DNA of 64,000 bases from Acidimicrobiia bacterium (GTDB lineage Bacteria; Actinomycetota; Acidimicrobiia; Spongiisociales; ZC4RG35): contig JBOGEV010000039.1 in assembly GCA_050742015.1 (NCBI GenBank), positions 660-64,659 on the forward strand, given 5' to 3'. The notes below the pieces were generated by a model. The model made no database searches, was not told the origin of the DNA, and was given only the letters and a program-made list of their open reading frames with translations. Positions 15,192 to 28,888 of this stretch are shown here, one piece after another. Numbering within the stretch: the stretch's first letter is position 1; each line of letters begins with the position of its first letter. Position numbers and translations under genes: made by a program.

Positions 15192-15768
15192 GCCGACGAC
15201 GGGCATCGCGCCAGTGCTTGGGCCCGATGATGACGGCGATGCTGGCGATGACGACCAGGAGCATGGTCGGCTCGTCCACGCCCCAGGGGTTGGAGATTCC
15301 GAACCGCCCCCAAGCGAGGGCAGCGATGCCCAGTACTCCGATGGTGGCCAGCGTCCCGATCCCGGTGGACCGGGTCAGGGCCGAAGCCAGGGCGAGCACG
15401 ACGACCACGACCGGAAACATTCCCGGCCAGAGGCCGAGCAGCACCCCGCCGCTGATACCCAGGCCCTTGCCGCCATGGAACCCGAGCCAGAGGTTGAACA
15501 CGTTGCCCATGACCGCGGCGATCCCGGCCACGACTGCTCCCGCCTGTTCGGCGACGAGGAGGCCGACGACGACTGCCGACAACCCCTTGGTGATCTCGAT
15601 CAGGAGGATGAGTAGGGCCAGGGTCGTACCACCCAGCCGCCGGGCGTTGTTGGCGCCGGGGTTGCCCGTGCCCTCCCGCCTCAGGTCGACACCCCAAATG
15701 CGCCCGAGCCAGGTCGCGGTGGGAAGCGAGCCGATCAGATAACCGACCACGCCGGCCAGGACTATCAC
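15169..15768 (-). CDS. plsY: acyl-phosphate:glycerol-3-phosphate acyltransferase
   Basis: [15 protein letters not shown]...[15 protein letters not shown]...GGKG motifs. Proposed GTG start at 15768 forms a GTGA overlap with the adnB-like stop. The ORF-track start at 15828 would overlap that gene by 64 nt. Confidence 0.8.
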
Positions 15769-18700
15769 GGCCCGCCCACCTCCTGCTTTCCCGGCTCGCA
15801 GAAACGGAGAAAGTCGCAGTGATGGCACCAGTTTCCGGGGACGGCGTCGAATCGGTCCTCGTCGATGGCCCCGGTGAGCTTTTCGAGATTCTCCCGGGCC
15901 ACCTGGCGCCAGGGCTCATCCGCCCGCTCGGTCTCAACGTCGAGGCCACCGCCGAGATAGGCAAAGGAAACGTCGATCTGGTCCGGTTTATCGATCCCGA
16001 AATCGACCTCGGTGGCAGCCAGGGAATACGCCTGAAGCTGGACCATTCGCGAGGGATCGTTCTTGCGCCGTCCGCTCTTGAAGTCGACGATCTCCCAGCA
16101 GCCGTCCCGGGCGTAGACGGCATCGATGCGGCCCCGCACCTGATAGCCGTTCTTCAGCTCGATGGTGAAAGGGGCTTCGACCAGATCGGCCGCCTCGGTG
16201 CCGTAGCGGGACTCGAGGAAGGCCTTGAACCCACCTCCCTCCACCACCTCGTCGACGGCGTCGTATAGAGAGGGCTCGAGGACCTCGAAGGGAACCTGTC
16301 CGCGCTGATGGAGCTCGATGCGACGATGCAGCTCGGTCCCGGCGATGGCGGCATGGTTGCGGCGACGGGGCAGGGGGTCGATCTCGGACCAGAAGAACCG
16401 CTTGGGGCACTGGGCGTAGGTCACCAGCCCGGTGACCGAAACGGCTCGGGCCCCGTGTGGATCCTCGGGGATGGCATCGACGCTGTCGAGCTCGAACAAC
16501 CTTCCCTTGATCGCCTCGACGCGCTGCTCATACTCATCGGCGATACCGAGAGCCCGGGCCTTCTCGGCGAGGATCGCCACGTCTCTGACCGCTTCCCGCA
16601 GCACCCCGTCCCATCCGGTCTCGAACAGGGGGTCCGGCGTCGCCCCTGCCGGATCGGCTCGGAGCACAGCCGGCCGGGGCGGCTCCTCGGCGTGACCCTC
16701 GTTTCGTGAAAGGGGATGCTGCTCGATCAACTCGAAGAAGGGGGACGGCTTCTTCGCCTTCACCGTGGGCTCGGGAAGCCCGTACCAGTAGGCGCCGGTG
16801 GCGATGAGCATCGACCTGGCCCGTGTTGTTGCGACATATGCGACCCGCCACTCCTGGAGGTCGTTCTGACGGCGGAAGTAGTCCTTGCGCCCGTCCTCGT
16901 CGGCCGGCATGTCGGCGATGGCATCGTCGATCCGGTGCTCCGCGGGGAGATATTCGGCGAACCGGGCCGGGTCGGGGAATATCTGAGCCTTACCCGGGAA
17001 GCTCCCTTCGGTCAGGGCGGGGATGGCCACGACATCCCACTCCAGCCCTTTGGCTCGATGCACCGTGACCAGGGTCACCGCCTCTTCTCCGGATAGGTGT
17101 GCGGAGTCGAGCTCTTCGGCGGGTTGATCCTCCATGGCGCCCAGATAGTCGAGGAATGCGGCGAGCGAAGGCCGGCCCTTGAGCGGGCTCCACTCCTCGG
17201 TCAGGTCGAGAAGTCGATAGAGATTGAGCCGGGCCGTGGTCCTCTGGTTTGGCGGCAGGGCCTCGACGTCCTGCCAGGCACGAGTCCGGTCGAGGATAAG
17301 CCGGCAGACCTCGACCAGGCTCGCCCCCTGGCTCTCGGTGAGGACCTCCCGGTAGATGCCGATGAAGTGCTCGAGTGCCGCTCTGGCCTCCGGTCGCAGG
17401 TCTTCGATCTCTTCGACGTGCTCGATGGCTTCGAGGAGCGTGAGACCAGGGACGTCGTCGGCGTCGGCTTCCTCGGGGGCGGAGCCAGTGAGCCAGCGGG
17501 TGAGCGGTGCGATGTCGGCATAGCCAAGCCGGTAGCGGCTGCCAAAGAGGATTTGGACCAGGGCCGGCGACTGCTCGGGACGGTCGACCACGGTCAGCCA
17601 TGCCCGCAGGTCGGCTACCTCGGGCACGGCGAGCAGTCCGCCGAGGTTGGCCACCTCGACAGGGATGTCATGACGGGCCATCGCGTCGACGACGACGGCG
17701 AAGTCCTTGTTCTTCCTGAAGAGGATTGCCATGTCAGACCACTTGGTTCCTGCCTCGTGCATGGCCTCGAATCGCCGGGCGATCCAGTCGGCCTCGGCGA
17801 GCGCGTCACCGGCCCAATGGGTGACGACCTGCCCCTCTCGATCCGGGTCATGGGAGACGAGTGCCTCTGAATCGGGATTGGCTCGCCGCCGGACCTCGTT
17901 TGCCACCTCGAGGATCACGGGCGCCGACCTCCGGTTGAGAGTGAGGGCGCGTTGGCGGGCTTCGCTGCCGTCGACCCGCCGGAAATGAGATGGAAAGAGC
18001 TCGAAGTTCTCCGCCGAAGCTCCACGCCACTCGTAGATCGTCTGGTCCTCGTCCCCAACAGCGATGACCGGAAACCCGTCTCCGAAGATCGTGGTGAGGA
18101 GCACCCGTTGTGCCGGGTTGGTGTCCTGGTATTCGTCGAGGACAACCGCCTGATAGCGATTCCGGATCTCCTTCGCCAGCTCGGGATACCGGGTCAGCAG
18201 GTCGGTGGACAAGGTGACCAGGTCGGAGTAGTCGACCACCCCGAGTCGCCGCTTGTCCTGCTCGTAGCGACGCAACGTCTCCAGCATCTCGATTCTGGCC
18301 GCCCAGACATCGTCCTTCGGCTCGGCTATGGCAATGAGATCGGCGGCCGTGAGCAGATGGTCTCCCATACGGTCTCCGAGGGTCCGGATCCTGTCCAGGC
18401 CCCGCACGTTGGTGATGTCGAGATGGGTGTACGAGGTGTGTTGATAGGTCTCGGTCAGGATCTGACGGGAGAAGGTCGGGGTGATCACCCGCACCCGGCT
18501 ATCGACCTCGACCAACGCACCGAACTCGGCCAGGACCTGGGCGGCGAAGCCGTGGTAGGTGTGGACCTCCGCCTGACGCCCCTCGTCGACAGCCGTTCCG
18601 AGGAACGACTTGACCCGCTCGGCCAGCTCCGATGCCGCCTTGTTGGTGAAGGTAATCCCGAGGATCTGCTCGGGATCGAGAGCGTGGACCTCGACCAGAT

Positions 18701-18821
18701 TGGCGATGACGAGGGCGACGGTGGTTGTCTTGCCGGTTCCGGCGCCGGCCCGGATGCGGATGCTGTCGAGCCCGAGCTCGAGGATCCCCTGTTGCTCGGG
18801 GGAAGGATTGAGACCGTTCAT
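15765..18821 (-). CDS. adnB: UvrD-like helicase / RecB-like nuclease subunit (AdnB-like)
   Basis: Walker A AGAGTGKTT, UvrD motifs (VLDEYQDTNP). C-terminal PD-(D/E)XK module ending in the Cys cluster CHHCDFLRFC. ATG at 18821 in an ATGA overlap with the upstream subunit. Confidence 0.8.
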   Translation of the reverse strand: MNGLNPSPEQQGILELGLDSIRIRAGAGTGKTTTVALVIANLVEVHALDPEQILGITFTNKAASELAERVKSFLGTAVDEGRQAEVHTYHGFAAQVLAEFGALVEVDSRVRVITPTFSRQILTETYQHTSYTHLDITNVRGLDRIRTLGDRMGDHLLTAADLIAIAEPKDDVWAARIEMLETLRRYEQDKRRLGVVDYSDLVTLSTDLLTRYPELAKEIRNRYQAVVLDEYQDTNPAQRVLLTTIFGDGFPVIAVGDEDQTIYEWRGASAENFELFPSHFRRVDGSEARQRALTLNRRSAPVILEVANEVRRRANPDSEALVSHDPDREGQVVTHWAGDALAEADWIARRFEAMHEAGTKWSDMAILFRKNKDFAVVVDAMARHDIPVEVANLGGLLAVPEVADLRAWLTVVDRPEQSPALVQILFGSRYRLGYADIAPLTRWLTGSAPEEADADDVPGLTLLEAIEHVEEIEDLRPEARAALEHFIGIYREVLTESQGASLVEVCRLILDRTRAWQDVEALPPNQRTTARLNLYRLLDLTEEWSPLKGRPSLAAFLDYLGAMEDQPAEELDSAHLSGEEAVTLVTVHRAKGLEWDVVAIPALTEGSFPGKAQIFPDPARFAEYLPAEHRIDDAIADMPADEDGRKDYFRRQNDLQEWRVAYVATTRARSMLIATGAYWYGLPEPTVKAKKPSPFFELIEQHPLSRNEGHAEEPPRPAVLRADPAGATPDPLFETGWDGVLREAVRDVAILAEKARALGIADEYEQRVEAIKGRLFELDSVDAIPEDPHGARAVSVTGLVTYAQCPKRFFWSEIDPLPRRRNHAAIAGTELHRRIELHQRGQVPFEVLEPSLYDAVDEVVEGGGFKAFLESRYGTEAADLVEAPFTIELKNGYQVRGRIDAVYARDGCWEIVDFKSGRRKNDPSRMVQLQAYSLAATEVDFGIDKPDQIDVSFAYLGGGLDVETERADEPWRQVARENLEKLTGAIDEDRFDAVPGNWCHHCDFLRFCEPGKQEVGGP

Positions 18822-21775
18822 GGGAGGTAGGCGCCTTTTCCCTCGGCCCAGGCCGGGCATGAGAGGCGGAAGTCGCAGTTCTTGCAACGCTCGCTGACTC
18901 TGGGCTCCCACCTCTCGTCCCTGATCGACTCGGTCACATCTTCCATGGTCTCGGCCACTTCCGACAGCAGGTCGAAGTCGAGCTTCCGGGTGACCACCGC
19001 CTTTCCCTTGGCCCGGGGAAACCACATCTCGGCGGCTACCACCGGCTCACCGGTCTCCTCGGCCACCGCGGACGCGTAGAAGGCGAGCTGTACCGACCGA
19101 TTGGCATCCGCCACCGCGGTTGCGGTCTTCGATGTCTTGTAGTCGATGACCCCGAGACCTGCGTCATTTCTCTCCAGCCGATCGATCACCCCCACCCACT
19201 CGACCCCGCCGATCTCGGTCTTCACCCGCTTCTCCACGTCGACCGGCATACCGCTGCCCGGCCATTCCTCGTAGAGCTTGACGATGCCCTCTCGCGCCTG
19301 GCGGAGCCAGGCTTCGTTGAGCTGGGGTGTCCCGAAGTCTGCTGTGGCCCACACTCTTTCCAGATGGCTGAGCGCCGTCGATAGGTCGGCATGGGTGGAG
19401 CCGGTGCCGATGATCTCGCGCTCCGCCCCCTCCAGGGCGGAGTGAACCAGGGTGCCCAAAGCAGCGTATGGGGAGTTGGCGTCAGTGAGCCGCAGTCTTC
19501 GCTCCAGGGCGTAGCGCCGGGGACATGAGGCGTACGAGTCGGCCTGGCTCGGTGACAGTCTGAGGGTCGGCCCGAGGATGGGCCGATCGGGGCCGGGCTC
19601 GGGCACACCGGCAAAGGCCATCGGATTCCACCACTTGCCGGGGGGATGGGCCAGGAGGTGGGCGGAGGCGAGACGCTCGACGCCGGCAGCTCCCGGGTCG
19701 AGCAACGCCCTTCTCAGCCCCACCTCCGCCTCGCTGAGCGATATCGGAGGCCCGGTGATCTCCTCGGGCGGCCCCAACGGGCCGTCGCGGCCGGGATCGG
19801 CGGCGGCCAGAAGGAATCGGGAGGGGCGGTGCTCACCCTGATCGACTCCGGCCGAGGTCGCGGTCCAAACCACCTTGGACTTCGCTCGGGTCATCGCGGT
19901 GTACGCCAGCCGCATCTCCTCCTGCACCTGGAAGAGATGCTGTGCCTCAGAATCGGTGGTTCGCTCGGGAGAGAGCAGCTCGGGTCGGAGCATCCTCCGG
20001 CCCCGTCTCAGATCGGGGAATACACCCTCGACGGCGTTGGCGATGTACACCACCTCGAATTCGAGCCCTTTGGCCTGATGCAAGGTGGTGAGCGTCACCT
20101 GCTCTTCGGTCGGCCGATAGGGAAGCAGGGGAGTCGACTCGATCCCCTCCTCGTCGGTGAGGGCGAACACCCGATCCAGGCTCACCTCGGGATCACGCTC
20201 GGCTTGGCGCTCCAGGACCTGGGAGAACGAGGTGAAGGCCAGCCGCCATCCCTTCCGCTCCGGATCGAGGACCACCCGGTCCAGCTCGTCGATGTGGGTC
20301 CAGATGTGCCAGAAGCCGTCGATGGCAGGAAGCGACGTGCACCATTCGTCGTTATCGAGGAGTGTGGCGAGACCGGGGTGCTCGGGGAGTTCGCGGGTCA
20401 GCACGGTCGGCCACGCGTCCCAGCTCCGGCGTCGGGAGCGGAGCACCTCGCGCTCCTTGCCCAGACCGATGCCGACCAGCGGGCCCAGCAGCAGACGTCT
20501 CATCGCCCGGTCGGCCTCGGCTGCCTCCACCGGCGTGAGCAGGGGAATCGGGCCACCGAGCTTGGCGGCGGTCACCATGTCCTGGATCATTCGCACAGCC
20601 GGGTGCTCGACCAGACGCGCCTGCGGGGAGTCGTGCGGGACACCCTTCCGGGTCAGGGCCCGGCTCAGCTCGTTCAACATCTCGCGCTTGGAGCGGACCA
20701 AGACCGCCATCGTTGACGGCTTGCGGCGTTCCACCCTGAGCTGGTGCTCGATGTCACGGGCAATCCATTCCGCCTCGGCCGTCTCCTGGTCGAACACGTA
20801 GGTCTCAACCCTCCCGGTGTGGGCCGCCGGGCTGACGGGGCCGGCCGCGCCGGGAAGCTCGCCGGTGGACACGATGCGGAGCGCGGAATCCAGGATCTCA
20901 GCCGGAACCCGAAGACTCCGCTCCAGCACGATGCGCCGGGAATCGGCGTGGTCCTCGGTGAAAGCGGCGATGTTCCTCAGCTCGGCCCCACGGAAGGAGT
21001 AGATCGACTGGTAGGGGTCGCCGGCGACTACGAGGTTGCCGTGGGGGCGGGCCAGCAGCCTGGCGATCTCGGCCTGAACCGGTGACGTGTCTTGGTACTC
21101 GTCGACCACTACGTAGTGGTATTGCCCGGCAAGCTCCTGTCCCTCGGGGGTGCCGAGGAGCGTGGCCGCCGAGACAAGGAGGGTGGCGTAGTCGGTGCGG
21201 CCCGACTCCTCCAATGTGCGGCGATAGCGGCGGAACAAGCCGGGGATGCCCTTCCAATCGGCCCGAGCCGCCGCCTTCTCGTCCAACTCGTCAGGCGAGA
21301 GCATTCGTTCGGAACATCGCATCATGAAGTCGGCAACCTCGGCGGCAAACGCGGGTGTGGCCAGGATCCCCCGATACATGACGGGCCACCCATCGGGCTC
21401 CTCGGTCGCCAGGAGATCTCCCACCAGTCCGATCTGCTCCGGCGTGGTGAGCGGAATCGGTCGCTCCGACTCCGGGCCTGCTTCGAGGAGACGCAGGGCC
21501 AGGGAATGGAAGGTCGAGGCGCCGATAGGCATGCCCGAGCCGCCCAACGCCAGATCAACCCGGCGCCGGATGTCGGCGGCAGCCCGTCGGGAGAATGTGA
21601 GCACCGAGATCTGATCCCGACGAGCCTTGCCGGTCTCGATGAGAAGGCAGAGACGCCTGACCAGGAACTCGGTCTTCCCGGTGCCGGGCCCGGCCACCAC
21701 GATCTGGGCGCCCTCGGTGTCGGCGAGAACGTGGTCCCAGTCGTCCGGATCGAGCCGGATCTCGTTCACTGGCAC
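18818..21775 (-). CDS. adnA: UvrD-like helicase / RecB-like nuclease subunit (AdnA-like)
   Basis: Walker A GPGTGKTE, VVDEYQDTSP. C-terminal nuclease module with CKNCDFRLSC. First gene of the helicase-nuclease pair, as in the mycobacterial adnA-adnB order. Confidence 0.8.
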   Translation of the reverse strand: MPVNEIRLDPDDWDHVLADTEGAQIVVAGPGTGKTEFLVRRLCLLIETGKARRDQISVLTFSRRAAADIRRRVDLALGGSGMPIGASTFHSLALRLLEAGPESERPIPLTTPEQIGLVGDLLATEEPDGWPVMYRGILATPAFAAEVADFMMRCSERMLSPDELDEKAAARADWKGIPGLFRRYRRTLEESGRTDYATLLVSAATLLGTPEGQELAGQYHYVVVDEYQDTSPVQAEIARLLARPHGNLVVAGDPYQSIYSFRGAELRNIAAFTEDHADSRRIVLERSLRVPAEILDSALRIVSTGELPGAAGPVSPAAHTGRVETYVFDQETAEAEWIARDIEHQLRVERRKPSTMAVLVRSKREMLNELSRALTRKGVPHDSPQARLVEHPAVRMIQDMVTAAKLGGPIPLLTPVEAAEADRAMRRLLLGPLVGIGLGKEREVLRSRRRSWDAWPTVLTRELPEHPGLATLLDNDEWCTSLPAIDGFWHIWTHIDELDRVVLDPERKGWRLAFTSFSQVLERQAERDPEVSLDRVFALTDEEGIESTPLLPYRPTEEQVTLTTLHQAKGLEFEVVYIANAVEGVFPDLRRGRRMLRPELLSPERTTDSEAQHLFQVQEEMRLAYTAMTRAKSKVVWTATSAGVDQGEHRPSRFLLAAADPGRDGPLGPPEEITGPPISLSEAEVGLRRALLDPGAAGVERLASAHLLAHPPGKWWNPMAFAGVPEPGPDRPILGPTLRLSPSQADSYASCPRRYALERRLRLTDANSPYAALGTLVHSALEGAEREIIGTGSTHADLSTALSHLERVWATADFGTPQLNEAWLRQAREGIVKLYEEWPGSGMPVDVEKRVKTEIGGVEWVGVIDRLERNDAGLGVIDYKTSKTATAVADANRSVQLAFYASAVAEETGEPVVAAEMWFPRAKGKAVVTRKLDFDLLSEVAETMEDVTESIRDERWEPRVSERCKNCDFRLSCPAWAEGKGAYLP

Positions 21776-21790
21776 GTAACGATCGTAGGG

Positions 21791-21928
21791 TCAGGCGGCC
21801 TCGGGGAGACGCCCGATCACCTCCACCAGCTCGGCTTCGATGCCGTAGGTGGAGAGGTAGACGACAGGGTCGTCGAATGGGTCGAGGGCGGGCTCCGTCT
21901 CTCGTTCTGCTCTGGTGAAGTAGCTCAT
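21791..21928 (-). CDS. possible small acidic protein (45 aa) upstream of adnA
   Basis: MSYFTRAERETEPALDPFDDPVVYLSTYGIEAELVEVIGRLPEAA. Ends 15 nt before the adnA start. No clear RBS and no family recognised. Confidence 0.3.
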   Translation of the reverse strand: MSYFTRAERETEPALDPFDDPVVYLSTYGIEAELVEVIGRLPEAA

Positions 21929-21987
21929 AGGAGACAAGCTATTTGCCGGGTGTGACAGAAACCCCTTGGAGCGTCCCAACGCATAGG

Positions 21988-23295
21988 ATGAGAGAACGTG
22001 CGTCTACTGGAACGGAGGTCTCGGTGACCACGGTGGTTGGCAACGAATTCGACTCGCCGATGTACAAGGAGGCCGCCGGGCAGTTCGACCGGGTGGCAAG
22101 GTTGATGGGGCTCGACGACAACGTCGCGGACCGGCTTCGCGTGCCTCAGAAGTCGACGATGGTCAGCTTTCCCTTTCGCCGCGACACCTACTCCGAGGTC
22201 GAGACCTTGTTCGGCTACCGGATACAGCACCTGACCACGATGGGCCCGACCAAGGGCGGGATTCGCTTCGCCCCCGATGTGGACCTGGGCGAGGTGGCCG
22301 CCCTCGCCATGTTGATGACCTGGAAGTGCTCGATCGTCGGTCTCCCCTTTGGCGGCGCCAAGGGAGGGGTGCGGGTGGACCCGATGGGTCTTTCCCGGGC
22401 CGAGCTGCAACGCGTGACCCGCCGATTCACCATGGAGATCATCAATGTCATCGGCCCGGAGACCGACATCCCCGCCCCTGACCTCGGGACCAACGAGCAG
22501 GTCATGGCGTGGTTGATGGACACCTACTCCCAACATGTCGGGCACTCGGTCCCTGCGGTCGTCACGGGAAAGCCGCCGGCCCTCGGTGGCAGCGTGGCTC
22601 GACGCGAGGCGACCGGGCGGGGACTCATGTTCCTCGTCCCCCAGGCCGCCGGTGTCCGCGAACTGGACCCGAATGAGCTCACCGTCGCCATCCACGGTTT
22701 CGGCAATGTGGGCCGCTACGCCGCGATCGCTGCGCATCAGATGGGGATCAGGGTTGCAGCGGTCTCCGACATCTCGGGCGCCCTGTACGACCCCGAGGGA
22801 TTGGAGGTCGAAGCCGTGGCCAAGTGGGTCGACGAGAACCGGTTCCTCGAGGGGTACCCGGATGCCGACTTCATCGACGGGGACAAGATCTTCAGTCTCC
22901 CCGTCGACGTGCTGGTGCCGGCCGCAGTCCAGAACGTCATCCGAGGTGACAACGCGGGCGAGATCGAGGCCAAGATCATCATCGAGGGAGCCAATGGCCC
23001 CACCACCATCGAAGCGGACGAGATCCTGAGGGAGAAGGGGGTGCTGGTCATCCCCGACGTCCTCGCCAACGCCGGTGGGGTGACGGTCTCCTACTTCGAA
23101 TGGGTTCAGGACGTCCAGAAGTACTTCTGGACGGAGAACGAAGTAGTGGCTCGGCTCCGGGAGATCATGACCCGTGCGTTCAGCGACGTGCACAACATCG
23201 CCATCAACGAAGACGTCGACATGAGAACCGCAGCCCTGATCAAGGGCATCCGCAAGGTGGCCGACGCCAAGTTGGTTCGAGGCATCTTCCCCTAG
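21988..23295 (+). CDS. gdhA: Glu/Leu/Phe/Val-family glutamate dehydrogenase
   Basis: Catalytic region GPTKGGIRF and GLPFGGAKGG, NAD(P) fold HGFGNVG. Start uncertain (ATG 21988 or TTG 21943). Confidence 0.9.
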   Translation: MRERASTGTEVSVTTVVGNEFDSPMYKEAAGQFDRVARLMGLDDNVADRLRVPQKSTMVSFPFRRDTYSEVETLFGYRIQHLTTMGPTKGGIRFAPDVDLGEVAALAMLMTWKCSIVGLPFGGAKGGVRVDPMGLSRAELQRVTRRFTMEIINVIGPETDIPAPDLGTNEQVMAWLMDTYSQHVGHSVPAVVTGKPPALGGSVARREATGRGLMFLVPQAAGVRELDPNELTVAIHGFGNVGRYAAIAAHQMGIRVAAVSDISGALYDPEGLEVEAVAKWVDENRFLEGYPDADFIDGDKIFSLPVDVLVPAAVQNVIRGDNAGEIEAKIIIEGANGPTTIEADEILREKGVLVIPDVLANAGGVTVSYFEWVQDVQKYFWTENEVVARLREIMTRAFSDVHNIAINEDVDMRTAALIKGIRKVADAKLVRGIFP

Positions 23296-23302
23296 TGGGC
23301 GA

Positions 23303-24088
23303 CTAGGCGTCGCTGGCCCACGCGGGGCAGATCTCCTTGAACGAGCACCAGTTGCACAGGGTCCCTGGTCGGGTGGGGAAAGTCCGGGTGGCCAGGGCGC
23401 GATCGATCGCATTCCACAGGGCACGCAACTGGGTGTCCATGGCGTCGAGTTGGCGGTCGTCGATATCGAGCCGGTAGATGGTCGGGCCGTTCAGGTACAT
23501 GAGCCGAAGCTCTTTGGGAGTCTCACCCGTGCCGCGTCGGATGAGCAGGGCGTAGATCTTCAGGGCGAAAAAGGCAGGGAGGGCGTAGCGCTCCGGGGGT
23601 GCCTTGCCCGTCTTGTAGTCGGTGATGATCAGACGACCGTCCTCGTCCCGGTCGATTCGGTCGAGGATCCCCCTGATCGTGATGCCATCCAGATCCTCCA
23701 ACATGTCGAGCTCGCGGTCGACCGGGTCGAAGCCGGTGGGGTCCTCGATACTGAAGTAATTGGCGAGGAGCTCGAGAGACTCCACACCCCACTGCCTCTC
23801 TTCTTCGATGCCCTCGAACAGCGCCTCGAACTCCTCGCTTCCCCGGAGCTCCGTCCACGCCTCACGGAACAAGTTGTAGAGAAGCTCCGGCGATCGGTCC
23901 TGCGATGGGTGATCGAAAAGCCGCTGCAGGGCGAGATGGGCGGTTGTTCCCCGCGCCTGGTAGACCGATGGCGGCTCGCTGAGGCGGTCGATGGCCCGAA
24001 ACTTGAACAGTTGCGGGCAGGTCTTGAAGTCTCCTGCCCGACTGGGGGAGAGGGTCTCCAAAGGCGCAAGTTCCAGTTCTACGGTCAC
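23303..24088 (-). CDS. RecB-family PD-(D/E)XK exonuclease (Cas4-like fold, stand-alone)
   Basis: N-terminal Cys (FKTCPQLF), nuclease core (ITDYKTGK) and C-terminal CNWCSFKEIC cluster. Confidence 0.8.
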   Translation of the reverse strand: MTVELELAPLETLSPSRAGDFKTCPQLFKFRAIDRLSEPPSVYQARGTTAHLALQRLFDHPSQDRSPELLYNLFREAWTELRGSEEFEALFEGIEEERQWGVESLELLANYFSIEDPTGFDPVDRELDMLEDLDGITIRGILDRIDRDEDGRLIITDYKTGKAPPERYALPAFFALKIYALLIRRGTGETPKELRLMYLNGPTIYRLDIDDRQLDAMDTQLRALWNAIDRALATRTFPTRPGTLCNWCSFKEICPAWASDA

Positions 24089-24133: not shown

Positions 24134-24769
24134 TCAGATAGGCCGCCAACGCAGCCAGAGCTCGGCGGCCGCGGCGTGAATCACGAAGGCGAGCCAGAAG
24201 GCGAGCCCGAATGCTTCGTCGAAGTCGAGGACGCCCAGAGCTTCGAACAGCGCGACCCACAGCCTGATCGTCCCAACAGCCAGACCTACGGCGAAGGCCC
24301 TGAGCATCCATCTCCGGTGCCGCACTGTGTCCCCGGCCCTGACCGACCGGTATGCCATCAACAGGGCGAGGATGAAGTAGATCCCAAAGATCACTGAAGC
24401 GCTGGCTTCGGCGAAGCCCCCGAAGGAGAAAAAGAAGCCGAAGATGATGGCGAACACGCCGGTCAGCACCCCGGTCGGGACCAGGATCCGGCCCATCCTT
24501 CGATGGAGGCCGAGGTGATTGTTGCGAAACCGGCGCGAGATCTGGAACGGGGCCATCACCAAATAGACCACGCCCGGGACGATGTGGGCGTAGGCCAGCA
24601 CCGGCTGTTGGGCATAACGGCGATCAAACTCACCCTTGGGTGGGATCACGCCGGCGGCGAGATTGGAGCTGTCGTTGACTACCCGAATGACTACGAAGAC
24701 CAAGACCACCGCGATCAGGAAGAAGACCGTTCCCCAGGCCGCCGGGACCCTCTTCGGGGTCGTTTCCAT
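24134..24769 (-). CDS. DUF2306-like integral membrane protein
   Basis: Six predicted TMs with PFQISRRFR...HRRMGR pattern. Confidence 0.6.
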   Translation of the reverse strand: METTPKRVPAAWGTVFFLIAVVLVFVVIRVVNDSSNLAAGVIPPKGEFDRRYAQQPVLAYAHIVPGVVYLVMAPFQISRRFRNNHLGLHRRMGRILVPTGVLTGVFAIIFGFFFSFGGFAEASASVIFGIYFILALLMAYRSVRAGDTVRHRRWMLRAFAVGLAVGTIRLWVALFEALGVLDFDEAFGLAFWLAFVIHAAAAELWLRWRPI

Positions 24770-24785
24770 GCGGGAGGAGGGTAAA

Positions 24786-24859
24786 CGCGAAAAGATGCCC
24801 TACACCGCGAAAACTTGGCCCCCATTTGGCTTGACGGGTCGTGTGACGTTTCGTACCTT
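24786..24859 (+). promoter_or_regulatory. candidate promoter A: two CGCGAAAA boxes plus TTGACG-17-TACCTT
   Basis: CGCGAAAA at 24786-24793 and 24806-24813. A 17-nt gap to TTGACG (24831-24836). A 17-nt spacer to TACCTT (24854-24859). Same layout as promoter B. Confidence 0.45.
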
Positions 24860-24865
24860 GCGCTT

Positions 24866-25012
24866 ACCGACACGGGTTCGCCCGGGACGGGGAAGGAGAG
24901 ACTTCGGTCCCTCCGGATCGCCACCTGACCGGGGGCCCGCTTTCCCGGTCGCGTGGCACTGAGAGCCCCGAGAGGGCTTCGGCTTCGGCCAGAGCTTTCT
25001 CGGGGTTTCTCG
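24866..25012 (+). ncRNA. candidate orphan structured sRNA A (about 145 nt), family unknown
   Basis: Hairpins CGGG-UUCG-CCCG (24873-84), GGAGAGAC-UUCG-GUCCCUCC (24895-914), GACCGGG/CCCGGUC (24927-50) nested in GCCAC/GUGGC (24920-57). Terminal hairpin CCCCGAGA/UCUCGGGG (24966-25005) followed by UUUCU. No + strand gene downstream. Confidence 0.4.
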
Positions 25013-25071
25013 CGTCCGGGGGCCTTGTTGAGGGAGCCACCTCACAAGTGGCTCGTGGCACACGACACCCG

Positions 25072-26124
25072 TCACCTCAACTCATAGAACCGGAAAAAGC
25101 CGGCTTCGCCCACCGCGCGGAACCCGCTGAAGCCGGCCTCCTCGGCGTATGCCTGCAATATGGCCGGGCGCATCACGGTGCCGGTCCCGACCGACGGCTG
25201 CGAGGAGAGGCCGTCAGGAAGGCAGATCAGGATGCTGAACCCGTACATCAGCTTCTCGAGCTCGTCGCCCTCGCCGGTGAAGACTTCGCCGACTGCCTCG
25301 TCCATGATCACCACGACTCCGTCCGGTTCGACCATCCGGCGCATGGCTGCCAGCACCGGCACTGGCTGGGCCATGTCGTGGATGCACTCGAAGGCGACTG
25401 CCACGTCGTACCTGTCGTTGCCCGAGAGTGACACGATGTCGTCACCGCTGAAGGCCACCCGATCCTGCAGACCGGCCTCGCTCGTGTTCTGCACCGCCAT
25501 GTCGATCGACGGAAGGTCGACGTCGAAGCCGCGAAAGGTTGCTTCTGGATAGGCCCGGGCCAGAGCGAGGGTCGACCACCCGGCACCGCACCCGATGTCG
25601 GCCACGCGGGAACCGGGCCGGATCAGCAGCTCGTGGACCGGACCCAGGCCAGCGAAGATGCCGGCCAGATCGTTGTCGAAGAACGGCCGGTTCATTTCCG
25701 CCTGGCTCTCCCGCATCTCCTGACCGAACGAGTCCCAGGAGACACCGCCACCTGACCGATATGCCTCCAGCAGGAGGCCCATCCTCTCGCCGGCGGTGGT
25801 GAGCATACGGGCGAGTGGTGCGAGATATGACCCGCTCGCCGGGTCGGCCAAGACTTCACGGTGAGTGTCGGGGAGGGAGAACACCGGTTCGTCACCGGAG
25901 AGATCGACCTCGACGATGCCGTAGGTGGCCTGCTGTTCCAACCACTCGCGGGCATACCGCTCGTCGATGCCGGTCTCGACGGCAAGACCCATGCTCGTCC
26001 TGCCCTCTGGGATCATGGCCCGGTACAGGCCGAGTCTGTCTCCGATGTGGATCGAGTACGTCTCGGCGGCATTCAATGCCGATGCGAAGACTCGATCGGC
26101 GAATTCCTCGACTGTGGCTGACAT
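25072..26124 (-). CDS. class I SAM-dependent methyltransferase with N-terminal winged-helix domain
   Basis: SAM motif I VADIGCGAGWSTLALA, acidic loop GFDVD. RBS GGGAGG upstream of the ATG at 26124. Confidence 0.85.
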   Translation of the reverse strand: MSATVEEFADRVFASALNAAETYSIHIGDRLGLYRAMIPEGRTSMGLAVETGIDERYAREWLEQQATYGIVEVDLSGDEPVFSLPDTHREVLADPASGSYLAPLARMLTTAGERMGLLLEAYRSGGGVSWDSFGQEMRESQAEMNRPFFDNDLAGIFAGLGPVHELLIRPGSRVADIGCGAGWSTLALARAYPEATFRGFDVDLPSIDMAVQNTSEAGLQDRVAFSGDDIVSLSGNDRYDVAVAFECIHDMAQPVPVLAAMRRMVEPDGVVVIMDEAVGEVFTGEGDELEKLMYGFSILICLPDGLSSQPSVGTGTVMRPAILQAYAEEAGFSGFRAVGEAGFFRFYELR

Positions 26125-26177
26125 TGTCTCTCCCTCCCAACCGCGGCGCCCTGACCGAACCTAGCCCAGATCTGCCT

Positions 26178-26252
26178 CGCGAAAACGAGGCTGAGCCTCG
26201 CGAAAAACAATCAGCCTGTGGAGTTGCCGCCTCGGGGCGGGATGTCTACGTT
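26178..26252 (+). promoter_or_regulatory. candidate promoter B: two CGCGAAAA boxes plus TTGCCG-17-TACGTT
   Basis: CGCGAAAA at 26178-26185 and 26199-26206. A 17-nt gap to TTGCCG (26224-26229). A 17-nt spacer to TACGTT (26247-26252). Confidence 0.45.
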
Positions 26253-26257
26253 TCCGA

Positions 26258-26623
26258 CCACGCCGCAGGGGAAACCCGGCGGCGGACCCGAACCAAGAGG
26301 TGCGGAGTGGTGAGAGCCACACCGAGGCCGTGGAGCGGGTACCCGGAGCCACTGGGAAACCGAGGGCGCCGGGGACGATCGGAAGATCGGACGGGGATCC
26401 TTCGGGATCGTCGAGCGGTTTTTCGGACGGCGGGTTTCACGACCCGCAACAGCTTCTCGGAGACGAGGAGCAGCGATCTTCGGATCGCACCCAGCCGGCG
26501 GCTTCGGCCATCGGCAGGAACTCCAATCGGAGTTGGGTCCCCGGCCCGACACCGACTGGACGAGAGTCCCGAGAGGGTTGCGGCTTCGGCCAAGGCTCCC
26601 TCGGGACTTTCTCGTTTTTTTTT
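26258..26623 (+). ncRNA. candidate orphan large structured RNA B (about 365 nt), family unknown
   Basis: At least nine local hairpins with GNRA (GAAA, GGAA, GAGA) or UUCG loops. Possible long-range GGACCC/GGGUCC pairing (26284-89 / 26535-40). Strong intrinsic terminator with T9. No credible CDS in any frame and no downstream + strand gene. Confidence 0.5.
26562..26623 (+). terminator. rho-independent terminator of RNA B
   Basis: GAGA-GUCCCGAG...(inner GGC-UUCG-GCC)...CUCGGGAC-UUUCUC hairpin followed by nine T (26615-26623). Confidence 0.75.
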
Positions 26624-26909
26624 GTGCGGGGGGGCGACCCCCCTGCACCCCCCGCTCGGGGCCGGGTCCGTCCGTCCGCTCTGAACCGGGTCAACAAGGG
26701 GGACCCGTACAACGCGTCCACGGCCAGGCCCACGCGTCTGCCCTGACCTGTGTGATTGTGCGGGGGGCGACCCCCCTGCACCCCCCGTCCGGGGCTAGGC
26801 CCACGCGTCTGCTCTGAACTGTGTGATTGTGCGGGGGGCCACCCCTGCACCCCCCGTCCGGGCTAGGCCCACGCGTTTGCTCTGAACCGGGTCAACAAGG
26901 GGGACCCGT
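26624..26909 (+). repeat. tandem array (3 units) of a G/C-run palindromic repeat family, locus 1
   Basis: Cores GTGCGGGGGGGCGACCCCCCTGCACCCCCCGC at 26624-55, 26758-87 and 26829-56. Shared modules CGCGTCTGCTCTGAA and CCGGGTCAACAAGGGGGACCCGT. Unit lengths 134 and 71 nt. Confidence 0.85.
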
Positions 26910-26966
26910 GACACCTGGCAGTTGTTCACCGTCGTCGGCTGACCGAATCCTGGTCCGCCCGGGGAG

Positions 26967-28274
26967 TCAGATCGGCCAGATCTCGGTTTGGCGGCCGTCG
27001 AGGAACTCAGGCCTCACCCCGTCGAACCAGGCGTTCTCCTCGAGCATGATCCGGACCGGGTAGTTGTCCCACTCCGGGACCGGCGACTCGGCCATCAGTT
27101 CGATGGACCATGCGGTGTCGGCGACCAGCTGGCGGTCGCCTTCCCCCGGGACGCCGTCCTGTCGGTCCCAGAGACCGATGGTTGGCCCGGCGCCGTGTCC
27201 ATGAAATCCGATGGGGTGGGTGTAGACCTTGCCCAGGATCGCCTCGTACGTGGCCAGATCCAGCGTTGCGGAGAGCACATCGTTGCCGGTGCGCCCCAAC
27301 TCGAAATTGTCGAGGAGGATGTCCTGCAGGCGGTTGGCGATGGCCAGGGCCGCCTTCAGTCCCTCGGGCACTTGGGCCTCGCGGTCCTTCAGCACGTACC
27401 CGTGCTGTTGCTGATCAGAGCACAGAGCGTGCCACACGATGCCGAAGTCGATGTGGACCAAGTCGCCTGGCTCGATGGTCACCGCTCCGGGGTGGCTGGC
27501 CAATGAGCCGCGCAGGTCCCCGGAGTGCCGTTGCGTCGAGACAGTCGGATGGAACCAGACTTGGGTGCCCAAGTCCTGGACGGCATCCCTGAGCCACCAC
27601 TCCACGTCGTGTGTCGTCGTGAGACCGGCATCGATCACCTCAGATGAGAGAGCCCGTCTGAGCAAGCCGTGGGCAGTGGCGCAGGCCTCGGCGAGTGTCG
27701 ACCGCTCCTCCGGGAGCCGGGTCTCCAGCCATCCCACGCTCAGATCTTCACCGGGCACCAAGCGGGCGGACAGAACTGGGCCGAGAGCTGCGACCAACGT
27801 CTGGTGCTCGGTTTCGGTCAAACCGTCGCCGTGTGCGAAATGGGTCGAGGTGTTGACCGCGATTTGCCTCGGGTCCCGCTCCCGGATCAAGCCTGCGAGA
27901 GCCTTCATTTGATCCGGCTCGGCGTCGGTATCCCACCGGGCAGGAAACAGGCCGTCGACTTCGTAACGGGACACGGCGGCTCGATCGACGCCTTCTGACA
28001 TTCGAAAGAAGACGAGGATGGTGCGTCGACGAGAGGTGATCCAATTCGCCGGGAGCATGGTCAACACCACCGGGTCATCGGCGTACTCGCGGGAGAGGAG
28101 GACCCAGCAGTCGATGTCGGCGTGGTCCATGAGGCGGGGCACGATTGTGTCGAGCCGTCTCCTCGTGGTCCGGTCGCGAGTCTCGGCCGAGACACGCAGG
28201 TTCAACTTCGGGATCACCGCAGAATCCTGCCACGCCGGCCTGCGAAGGGATAACCCCGATCGGTAGCCTGGCAT
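26967..28274 (-). CDS. M24-family metallopeptidase (Xaa-Pro aminopeptidase/creatinase-like)
   Basis: Pita-bread metal-site pattern VHIDFG...HPIGFHGHG...IELM. The start may be the GTG at 28217, because the 28274 start leaves only 2 nt to the divergent gene. Confidence 0.8.
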   Translation of the reverse strand: MPGYRSGLSLRRPAWQDSAVIPKLNLRVSAETRDRTTRRRLDTIVPRLMDHADIDCWVLLSREYADDPVVLTMLPANWITSRRRTILVFFRMSEGVDRAAVSRYEVDGLFPARWDTDAEPDQMKALAGLIRERDPRQIAVNTSTHFAHGDGLTETEHQTLVAALGPVLSARLVPGEDLSVGWLETRLPEERSTLAEACATAHGLLRRALSSEVIDAGLTTTHDVEWWLRDAVQDLGTQVWFHPTVSTQRHSGDLRGSLASHPGAVTIEPGDLVHIDFGIVWHALCSDQQQHGYVLKDREAQVPEGLKAALAIANRLQDILLDNFELGRTGNDVLSATLDLATYEAILGKVYTHPIGFHGHGAGPTIGLWDRQDGVPGEGDRQLVADTAWSIELMAESPVPEWDNYPVRIMLEENAWFDGVRPEFLDGRQTEIWPI

Positions 28275-28276
28275 GC

Positions 28277-28888
28277 ATGCGATACCCAGAGAAGCTGCTC
28301 AGCCCCGGTGAGGAGATCAAGGCCCAGTTCAGGCCACACTGGTCGCGGATCGCCAGGGAGGGGATTCTCTCGATTCTCGTACTGGTGTTGATCGTCCTGA
28401 TCGCCACCCAGGGCTTCAGCGGGGGCGGCTGGGTGATCGTGGGCTTGATCGTCGCCTGGTTCGTCGTTGTGATCGCCGAGTTCATCCGGTGGTGGACGAC
28501 CCAGCATGTGATCACCACCGAGAGGGTGATCCACCGGATGGGACTGATCTCCAAACAGGGCAAGGAGATCCCACTCGAGGTGATTAACGACGTCGCCTTC
28601 AAGCAGTCGGCCTTCGAGCGAATCTTCGGGACCGGGGACCTCCTCATCGAGTCGGCCGGTACCCATGGTCAGACCCGCTACAGCGACATCCCCGAGCCGG
28701 AGGCGGTGCAGTCTTTGATCTATCAAGCCCGGGAGGATCGCCAGGTAGCCCTCGAGTCCGGCCTCAGGTCGACGGCGAGCGAGAGCCCGGCGTCGCAGCT
28801 GGCCACCCTGTCACGACTCCACGACGAGGGGAAGCTCACCGACACCGAGTTCGAAGCAGAGAAACGCAAGCTGCTCGGGGACGCCTGA
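28277..28888 (+). CDS. membrane bPH (YdbS/DUF304-like) domain protein with C-terminal SHOCT domain
   Basis: MRYPEKLLSPGEEIKAQFRPHW..., two TMs, PH-like core. C-terminus LATLSRLHDEGKLTDTEFEAEKRKLL is a SHOCT motif. Confidence 0.75.
   Translation: MRYPEKLLSPGEEIKAQFRPHWSRIAREGILSILVLVLIVLIATQGFSGGGWVIVGLIVAWFVVVIAEFIRWWTTQHVITTERVIHRMGLISKQGKEIPLEVINDVAFKQSAFERIFGTGDLLIESAGTHGQTRYSDIPEPEAVQSLIYQAREDRQVALESGLRSTASESPASQLATLSRLHDEGKLTDTEFEAEKRKLLGDA

Follow-up and report, generated by a model that had tools for sequence, protein, structure and literature searches.

A conserved structured noncoding RNA gene and its short paralog at a fixed locus in Acidimicrobiia

What occupies a long gap between bacterial protein genes when the gap itself carries no credible coding sequence? 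We asked this of a 64,000-nucleotide (nt) stretch of DNA from an Acidimicrobiia bacterium (contig JBOGEV010000039.1; "the window" below means this whole stretch), in which a methyltransferase gene (25072-26124, - strand) and an M24-peptidase-like gene (26967-28274, - strand) bound such a gap. A preliminary description, made from the sequence, had placed there an orphan, stand-alone structured RNA with its own promoter and terminator and of no recognised family. We find that 26259-26623 on the + strand is an independent gene for a conserved structured noncoding RNA of about 365 nt, its start being predicted from the -10 element and a conserved CACGCCG and its end from a T-run. The features of a stand-alone bacterial small RNA (sRNA) gene, namely its own promoter, an intrinsic terminator and a covarying structure, are all present. 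Promoter conservation, covariation and the null result in Rfam support the core of the earlier proposal, some points of which need correction. In particular, the RNA is not an orphan, as a 153-nt paralog lies 1.4 kb upstream and a large family exists in Acidimicrobiia.

The + strand of 26255-26625 folds to a minimum free energy of -212.9 kcal/mol (z = -8.42), a value as low as which was not seen in any of 100 dinucleotide shuffles; the - strand gives z = -5.28. A terminator scan of the window calls the long RNA's 3' hairpin and T-run. A generic promoter scan of the window did not call the long-RNA promoter, and support for that element therefore comes from its conservation. Across the RNA region, a Pfam scan of six open reading frames (ORFs) gave no credible match, the sole one with E <= 1 being DUF7514 (E = 0.33, far under the cut-off). 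There is thus no sign of a decayed gene, and we ruled out a pseudogene or a small protein at the long RNA, with no credible Pfam signal in any frame. An origin in a mobile element, phage or plasmid was likewise ruled out, as plasmid and phage collections hold no DNA similar to the RNA region and the pattern of the 3' hairpin described below has no match in viral contigs.

Is the region conserved in relatives? A genome scan with the flanking M24 peptidase protein, itself without a record when looked up, gave 17 loci. The three closest (L001, L002 and L017, from an uncultured actinomycete metagenome-assembled genome (MAG) and two Acidimicrobiia MAGs, with M24 proteins 59-63% identical) carry a homolog of the whole RNA region at the same place, with nhmmer E-values of 1.5e-50 for L001, 3e-33 for L017 and 1.7e-23 for L002. 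Nucleotide identity between L001 and the window is 72% over 466 nt, beside a flanking protein that is only 63% identical. The more distant M24 loci of the same scan, which come from other phyla, hold nothing similar to the RNA. All three close relatives also have, as the window does, a second, shorter copy of the 3' hairpin upstream.

From this shared 3' hairpin we derived a pattern for metagenomes, CCCGAGAGGG-N14-30-CTCGGG-N1-5-TTCTCG, which is found in at least 120 contigs. The matches listed contain 153 hairpin copies in 124 sources, and the predicted lengths of their RNAs group at about 100 nt, at about 153 nt and between 236 and 542 nt. To have a sample free of selection through the hairpin, we picked loci with upstream sequence by their neighbouring bPH_2 protein alone (L138-L141); the short and the long RNA were both present in 4 of 4. 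The bPH_2 homologs carry the source name 'Acidimicrobiia bacterium', in a protein search that listed only close Acidimicrobiia homologs. Judged by these sequence matches, the long and short RNAs form a two-gene family that is widespread in Acidimicrobiia, and the class-wide distribution is suggestive of a housekeeping function.

We used an alignment of 20 window-type long RNAs, A2, to examine whether base pairing is maintained as the sequence changes. Of the 89 pairs that RNAalifold predicted on A2, 26 show compensatory double changes; the counts that follow use the 88 sensible pairs. Standard pairs are formed in 97.1% of cells, as against 34-56% when the partners are slid by 1-3 columns. Double-sided changes were observed in 26 pairs and 78 cells, compared with 10.8 +/- 2.0 pairs and 19.9 +/- 4.5 cells after shuffling, and neither value was reached in any of 500 shuffles, which are counts and not probabilities because the sequences are related. 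The slid controls retain this relatedness and yet collapse. The alignment also fixes the + strand: it contains at least eight conserved G-U pairs, each of which would turn into an A-C mismatch if the RNA were read from the opposite strand. Thus the search for homologs and covariation that the preliminary description had proposed yields both: homologs exist, and covariation supports the helices.

The A2 consensus comprises 16 local helices, and the sole long-range pair that RNAalifold proposes never covaries. As modelled, the long RNA is a string of about 14 local hairpins with UUCG or GNRA loops. The coordinates given earlier for the promoter, for the dense run of hairpins with GAAA, GAGA, GGAA and UUCG loops and for the nine T (26615-26623) all proved correct, and of the nine hairpins listed with them six are in the consensus fold (26261-84, 26307-20, 26396-409, 26430-47, 26452-71 and 26500-09). 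A further one, 26473-88 (H12), is supported in the register first described, being 89% paired with 2 double-change pairs, the consensus fold having chosen another register. Support is weaker for 26376-89 (84% paired, 2 double-change pairs). The hairpin at 26519-34 is paired in 88% of cases but shows no double change and competes with the better-supported 26523-59. A long-range helix between GGACCC and GGGUCC, also proposed earlier, is not supported, since it does not covary and its A-U pair is missing in 14 of the 20 sequences.

Another way to view the structure is by how freely each helix changes. Analysed in this way, the helices divide into two classes, spacers that covary freely and vary in number, and elements whose sequence is frozen. 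Directly at the predicted transcript start is a 5'-terminal hairpin with a GAAA loop (26262-26283), in which the pair formed by alignment columns 6 and 25 is CG in 15 sequences and UA in 5; all sequence subtypes listed have a hairpin in this position. The variable 5' domain that follows (26288-26374; helices 3-8) consists in the window of an irregular GAGA-loop hairpin (26288-26339) and one GGGAAAC-loop module (26343-26374). The spacer hairpins H10-H13 (26430-47, 26454-69, 26473-88 and 26494-515) are free to covary and vary in number; compensatory changes affect 6 of 7 pairs at 26430-47, 4 of 5 at 26454-69 and 6 of 8 at 26494-515. Across 34 window-type RNAs of 350-499 nt, GGGARAC-loop modules number 1-6 and CUUCGG hairpins 0-9 per RNA, and all 73 long RNAs among the matches listed contain 198 occurrences of CUUCGG where 5.4 are expected. 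The repeated loops of the long RNA are UUCG, GAAA and GCAA tetraloops.

Three parts of the RNA make up the frozen class, namely hairpin H9 with CGGGGAUCCUUCGGGAUCGUCG, H14 at its C-rich apex GGUCCCCGGCC, and the 3' hairpin in its lower stem. H9 (26387-26418), with its core at 26392-26413 and an internal G/G mismatch, has 8 of 11 pairs that never vary and none of 11 with double changes in the 20 sequences, while adjacent helices covary freely. In H14 (26523-26559) it is the apex, GUUGGGUCCCCGGCCCGAC at 26532-26550, that is frozen: across the 20 sequences any change in it is one-sided, and GGGUCCCCGGC, its core, never varies, whereas the outer stem covaries (the pair of columns 321 and 353 is GC in 10, AU in 7 and CG in 1), with 12 double-change cells over the helix 26523-59. 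The 3' hairpin (H15/H16, 26562-26613), which with the T9 run (26615-26623) forms the terminator and is the family signature shared with the short paralog, is frozen in its lower stem and covaries at its apex. Loci reached via a different anchor carry natural variants of it, such as a G-C to A-U compensation in L047, and it is therefore a real RNA helix. Of the T9 terminator described earlier, hairpin and T-run were found by the terminator scan, but T9 is not conserved in relatives; comparison of the sequences indicates that the tail is lineage-specific and the hairpin the conserved part. In more distant long subtypes H9 and H14 are missing, but the promoter, a 5'-end hairpin, hairpin arrays and the 3' hairpin are all still present. 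We also observed that the 5' strand of H9 (CGGGGAUCC, 26392-26400) is complementary to the H14 apex (GGGUCCCCG, 26535-26543) over 9 bp with one G-U, which may be an alternative long-range pairing or may be chance in G+C-rich sequence; as both strands are invariant in all 20 sequences, covariation does not reach this pairing.

What drives transcription of the long RNA? Its promoter (26224-26252, + strand), which is read from the window and conserved, has a -35 of TTGCCG (26224-29), a 17-nt spacer and a -10 of TACGTT (26247-52). Upstream lie two boxes. The distal CGCGAAAA box (26178-26185), at about -81 from the predicted start, has a position conserved across promoters, and the proximal box, TCGCGAAAAACAATCAG (26198-26214), is near-invariant over 9 positions, its CGCGAAAA core (26199-26206) beginning 25 nt upstream of the -35 and 21 nt past the distal box. 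Among the matches listed, TTGnnn-17/18-TAnnnT is found upstream of 121 family members, with TACTTT and TACGTT as the commonest -10. Alignment at the -10 of 42 long and 28 short unique promoters gives a -35 of TTGnCn/TTGACG, a 17-18-nt spacer and a -10 of TAC(T/G)TT, with a near-invariant CGCGAAAA box starting 25 nt 5' of the -35 and, 20-21 nt beyond it, a second one. The four occurrences of CGCGAAAA in the 64 kb (chance expectation 1.1) are all at the two RNA promoters. Family loci totalling 767 kb contain 276 occurrences, of which 186 precede a predicted RNA start by 40-120 nt and most of the others precede additional promoter-like sites built in the same way. From this distribution we infer that the paired boxes are the putative site of a dedicated DNA-binding activator that co-regulates the long and short RNAs; a specialised UP element is less likely. 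The boxes are not known to match any operator consensus. In a more distant subtype (downstream of the first RNA in L026, L104, L113 and L132; also L107, L073, L031 and L081) the first RNA is followed by a second one, whose promoter has a -35 of TGGACG and a row of as many as four CGCGAAA(A) boxes. The window thus represents only part of the family's promoter and gene arrangements.

The short paralog (24866-25018, + strand, about 153 nt) sits in a 300-nt gap between the DUF2306 and methyltransferase genes. Its promoter (24786-24859, + strand) has CGCGAAAA boxes at 24786-93 and 24806-13, a -35 of TTGACG (24831-36) and a -10 of TACCTT (24854-59), and the spacing from box to -35 equals that of the long-RNA promoter. 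The RNA (z = -4.6) has four hairpins, of which the 3' hairpin (24960-25012) is as in the long RNA; the motif of this hairpin occurs twice in the 64 kb, only at the two RNA genes, the second copy being at 24967-88. An alignment of 33 short-RNA sequences (A1) recovers the four hairpins, with compensatory changes in 15 of 43 pairs. An invariant 14-nt sequence, GGGGCCCGCUUUCC (24932-45), is carried on a covarying stem. Some relatives carry 'mini' RNAs of 100 nt that consist of the last two hairpins only. A pseudoknot in the short RNA between a CGGGGAAGG box and the P3 loop was considered and rejected, the box varying without compensation and the 100-nt minis keeping the loop without the box.

The two RNA genes have a conserved setting. 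Its order is a divergent AdnAB-like operon, the short RNA, the long RNA, a gene for a bPH_2-SHOCT membrane protein and a gene for an AMP-binding enzyme, the last two on the same strand as the RNAs. In the window the AdnAB-like operon (15765-24088, - strand) encodes a 261-aa PD-(D/E)XK nuclease, a 499-aa protein without a Pfam hit and two UvrD-helicase/PD-(D/E)XK fusions that are AdnA/AdnB-like; its promoter region abuts the short-RNA boxes in lineages without the DUF2306 insertion. Among the matches listed, the nuclease gene is upstream in 55 loci and bPH_2 is downstream on the same strand in 72, mostly 12-120 nt past the 3' hairpin. Insertions are fewer, with M24 in 10 loci and the methyltransferase gene in 5. 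The surroundings of the two RNA genes are an insertion hot spot (24134-28274 in the window; L001, L017, L034, L141 and others), in which the inserted genes are DUF2306, methyltransferase and M24 in the window and relatives, HNH/DUF222 and bPH_1 in L141, and one small unidentified gene each in L001 and L017. Where genes have been inserted between or after them (the convergent M24 in 10 loci, the methyltransferase, HNH), the RNAs are intact. The lack of a credible Pfam match in the six ORFs across the RNA region agrees with the preliminary description, but its portrayal of the gap as otherwise empty was incomplete. Between the RNA terminator and the M24 gene (26624-26910, + strand) lies a TRF array (26715-26887, 2.5 copies of a 71-nt unit), and the same interval has three copies of a G6/C6 palindrome (TGTGCGGGGGGCGACCCCCCTGCACCCCCC); a similar GAGGGGGGACGACCCCCCTC element is 3' of the RNA in L047. 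The repeat may be an element like a repetitive extragenic palindrome (REP) or a miniature inverted-repeat transposable element (MITE).

Given this setting, two explanations have to be weighed that would deny the long RNA a function of its own. One takes the sequence to be non-functional, a decayed gene or REP/MITE-like palindromes piled up in a recombination-prone gap, and it can point to the insertion hot spot and to the 71-nt repeat with G6/C6 palindromes directly downstream. It is scarcely credible, being already contradicted by covariation and synteny: nucleotide identity in L001 exceeds that of the protein beside it, compensatory changes are present, the promoter is conserved, no frame gives a credible Pfam signal and the internal hairpins have no further copies in the window. 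Nor are there the many dispersed copies of a REP or MITE, the 3' hairpin motif being confined within the 64 kb to the two RNA genes. The other takes the long RNA to be a cis-acting 5' leader or attenuator of the bPH_2/AMP-binding operon, split off here by the M24 insertion. The 72 loci with bPH_2 downstream are what such a leader predicts, and the terminator-like 3' hairpin could act as an expression platform. The bPH_2 gene, however, has signals of its own. Of 54 loci, 39 have a TAnnnT hexamer whose end is 5-9 nt away from the bPH_2 start codon on its 5' side (background 0.008), which is the layout of leaderless actinobacterial mRNA. A further 12 of the 54 carry a -10-like hexamer at a greater distance, and 9 of these 12 also show a Shine-Dalgarno-like motif. 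The bPH_2-SHOCT gene thus appears, from its sequence, to be transcribed as a leaderless mRNA, and because it has its own promoter we reject the leader reading, which we consider very improbable. A leader would be a 5' untranslated region with no promoter in between, whereas the neighbour in the window is convergent and bPH_2 has its own -10 in relatives. Moreover, the RNA is kept intact where a convergent gene parts it from bPH_2, the short paralog with the same 3' hairpin precedes the long-RNA promoter rather than a gene, no conserved alternative antiterminator pairing was seen, and variable hairpin arrays are unlike a ligand-binding aptamer. The earlier statement that the RNA is not a leader therefore stands on the -10 of bPH_2, while the argument from the convergent gene that had been offered for it is good only for the window and about 10 relatives, bPH_2 in most relatives lying on the same strand 16-126 nt downstream. 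For the bPH_2-SHOCT gene of the window itself, the likely start is ATG 28277 (region about 28260-28280), not the TTG 28145 of the listed ORF.

How, then, might the long RNA act? The best explanation in our view, although we stop a little short of calling it probable, is that it is an independent and very stable RNA acting in trans, whose frozen hairpins would be recognised by a partner, likely a protein. Transcription would begin at the conserved sigma-70-type promoter preceded by two CGCGAAAA direct repeats 21 bp apart, and would end at the conserved long 3' hairpin, followed here by nine U. A dedicated transcription factor at the two boxes would co-regulate the long RNA with the 153-nt short RNA. 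The long RNA would then act in trans, with the frozen hairpins as recognition sites for the partner, most likely a protein that is bound or titrated, and with the variable hairpin arrays and terminal hairpins giving stability and spacing. We favour a protein as that partner, with somewhat less assurance again and counting in the lesser chance that it is RNA polymerase (RNAP), because freezing extends to paired positions and because the RNA, besides being large and modular, is found class-wide at a fixed locus. By analogy with 6S, Ms1, CoRP and CsrB, we infer that the size of 236-542 nt and the variation in modules fit protein-binding RNAs better than typical base-pairing sRNAs. Several points weigh against recognition by a protein partner. 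The scanned neighbourhood holds no obvious RNA-binding protein gene by Pfam, the multi-site sponge architecture of CsrB is not reproduced because the frozen elements are single-copy, and most of the repeated modules are stable tetraloop hairpins of a generic kind. The C-rich apices that stay invariant on covarying stems (H14; short-RNA P3) resemble base-pairing seeds. In addition, the predicted transcript ends are taken from sequence signals, relatedness within A2 means that significance against the shuffles is overstated, and the conservation of the 3' hairpin is in part by construction, because most homologs were collected by its pattern, the loci free of that selection being seven.

Two further readings concern the identity of the partner. 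If it were mRNA, the long RNA would be a base-pairing sRNA that uses C-rich apices (UCCCCGG of H14; CCCGCUUUCC of short-RNA P3) as seeds for G-rich mRNA, and the two paralogs would be one regulon under one transcription factor, like the tandem OmrA/OmrB. This is possible, if doubtful. The apices are invariant over covarying stems (P3 columns 92-95/110-113; the outer stem of H14), and distant members flip the H14 stem pair (GUUGGG...CCCGAC to GUCCGG...CCGGAC) with GGUCCCCGGCC kept. The two genes stand in tandem with promoter boxes and a terminator common to both. To our knowledge Actinobacteria, Acidimicrobiia among them, lack Hfq, and Actinobacteria use C-rich loop seeds. Set against this, 365-540 nt with ultra-stable hairpin arrays is atypical of seed-type sRNAs; mRNA pairing does not explain why paired positions, too, are frozen in H9 and in the 3' hairpin's lower stem; and distant subtypes lack these loops yet have the promoter and 3' hairpin. 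When 0.92 Mb of sequence was searched for complements of the invariant stretches, almost all matches were the antisense strand of the RNA genes themselves, the few with 2 mismatches being taken as chance; a target search with the short H14 motif, one mismatch allowed, gave noise only. Base pairing suits the short RNA better than the long one. If the partner were RNAP, a special case of protein binding, the long RNA would be abundant and would bind and buffer RNAP core or holoenzyme, doing in Acidimicrobiia the work of 6S, Ms1 or CoRP. Neither Ms1 nor 6S is reported for Acidimicrobiia in the literature, the RNA has one fixed locus throughout the class and a conserved promoter that looks strong, and actinobacterial RNAP-binding RNAs vary in sequence and size (PMC9130861; PMC11077062). 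The bPH_2 gene that follows the RNA in those 72 loci also answers to 'PH', a synteny phrase of Ms1 (PMC9130861), although bPH_2 proteins are common and the word is thus weak evidence. We nevertheless consider RNAP unlikely as the partner, there being no similarity to the Ms1 of S. coelicolor (nhmmer, E <= 10), no Rfam 6S hit, neither a closing stem nor a central bubble in the consensus fold, and no HAD-IB hydrolase among the window genes scanned. A bolder form of recognition by a protein, tentative at best, is that the long and short RNAs are a new protein-titration system, switched on at the CGCGAAAA boxes and capturing RNAP or a new RNA-binding protein.

The significance of such a pair lies in where it is found. 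Soils, sediments, the ocean and wastewater all harbour Acidimicrobiia in abundance; the class is hardly studied genetically, and we found no account of a regulatory RNA in it. Here a class-wide pair of large structured RNAs stands at a fixed locus, with a promoter element that is essentially only at these genes, and so presents a ready-made regulon of a putative transcription factor, two RNAs and a putative partner. If that partner is RNAP, the family would fill the 6S/Ms1 gap for the class and would be a third unrelated fold for that job in Actinobacteria; if it is another protein or a set of mRNAs, the RNA would be a new global regulator. Should the titration reading be true, global control in Acidimicrobiia would have a new fold and a new regulatory circuit. 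An Rfam entry for the family would end the mis-annotation of such gaps with spurious ORFs.

How does the family relate to RNAs already known? As the preliminary description had anticipated, Rfam 15 gives no family at gathering score, either in the whole 64-kb window or in the loci of 15 relatives (100 kb). Permissive scans (E <= 10) of 26000-27100 and of the second RNA region gave sub-threshold noise only, such as Scr5676 (20 bits against a gathering score of 56) and ncS035 (17.9 against 79). Neither Rfam 15 nor a full-text search on structured RNAs in Acidimicrobiia yielded a description of the long/short RNA family. What is new is thus the RNA family rather than the kind of system.

Among the systems nearest to it are Ms1 (mycobacterial Ms1/MTS2823, Streptomyces scr3559) and 6S. 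Ms1 is an abundant RNA of Actinobacteria that binds the RNAP core and has been traced by synteny, with a HAD-IB hydrolase like Rv3661/SCO3558 as its hallmark neighbour and 'PH' domain among the secondary synteny words (Table 3 of PMC9130861); Acidimicrobiia are not mentioned in that survey (PMC9130861). Like Ms1 and 6S, the long RNA is an actinobacterial RNA of medium size, encoded by a stand-alone gene at a fixed locus, with terminal hairpins and a class-wide presence that suggests a housekeeping role, and with Ms1 it shares a PH-type neighbour, here bPH_2. Unlike either, it belongs to a long/short pair with dedicated upstream boxes. Membership of Ms1 itself we rejected, for want of sequence similarity, for a different fold and for the lack of a HAD hydrolase neighbour among the genes scanned. 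Profiles of both RNAs gave no nhmmer hit at E <= 10 to the S. coelicolor Ms1 (scr3559, RACE-mapped; PMC9130861 supplement), and blastn of both found only chance words of 7-10 nt. In place of the rod of Ms1 and 6S, with its paired ends and central bubble, the A2 consensus has local helices and no closing stem. Pfam scans of 18 window ORFs, part of those within about 12.4-40 kb, found no HAD hydrolase, 2 of the 18 being without a Pfam hit. RNAP-binding RNAs of Actinobacteria are nevertheless diverse, Ms1 being about 300 nt and CoRP 516 nt (PMC9130861; PMC11077062), and CoRP shows that within the phylum they need not resemble 6S (PMC11077062). CoRP, too, is a large, highly structured, taxon-restricted actinobacterial RNA from outside Rfam (PMC11077062), and what sets the present family apart is CoRP's own description: CoRP is restricted to Corynebacterium and located between tRNA genes (PMC11077062), whereas the locus here, in Acidimicrobiia, is between the nuclease operon and bPH_2.

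Other likenesses are of architecture. The 6C RNA (RF01066) resembles the family in its C-rich apical loops on conserved hairpins and in its broad taxonomic conservation. In Actinobacteria 6C RNA acts by pairing its C-rich loops with G-rich regions of mRNA; it consists of two hairpins and is well under 100 nt, whereas the RNA here has 365 nt, about 14 hairpins and no Rfam hit. The sponges CsrB/CsrC and RsmX/Y/Z differ in having many GGA loops. Such GGA-in-loop repeats are absent here, where the repeated loops are those of the UUCG, GAAA and GCAA tetraloops, and Rfam gives no CsrB/Rsm hit; CsrA is not known to be reported in Actinobacteria, and neither Hfq nor CsrA is known from Acidimicrobiia. 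The two systems have in common paralogs of different length, a conserved upstream site common to their promoters, intrinsic terminator hairpins and, by analogy only, a number of hairpin modules that varies by species. The mode of action would resemble that of 6S, Ms1, CoRP or CsrB in outline, while the family is a member of none of them.

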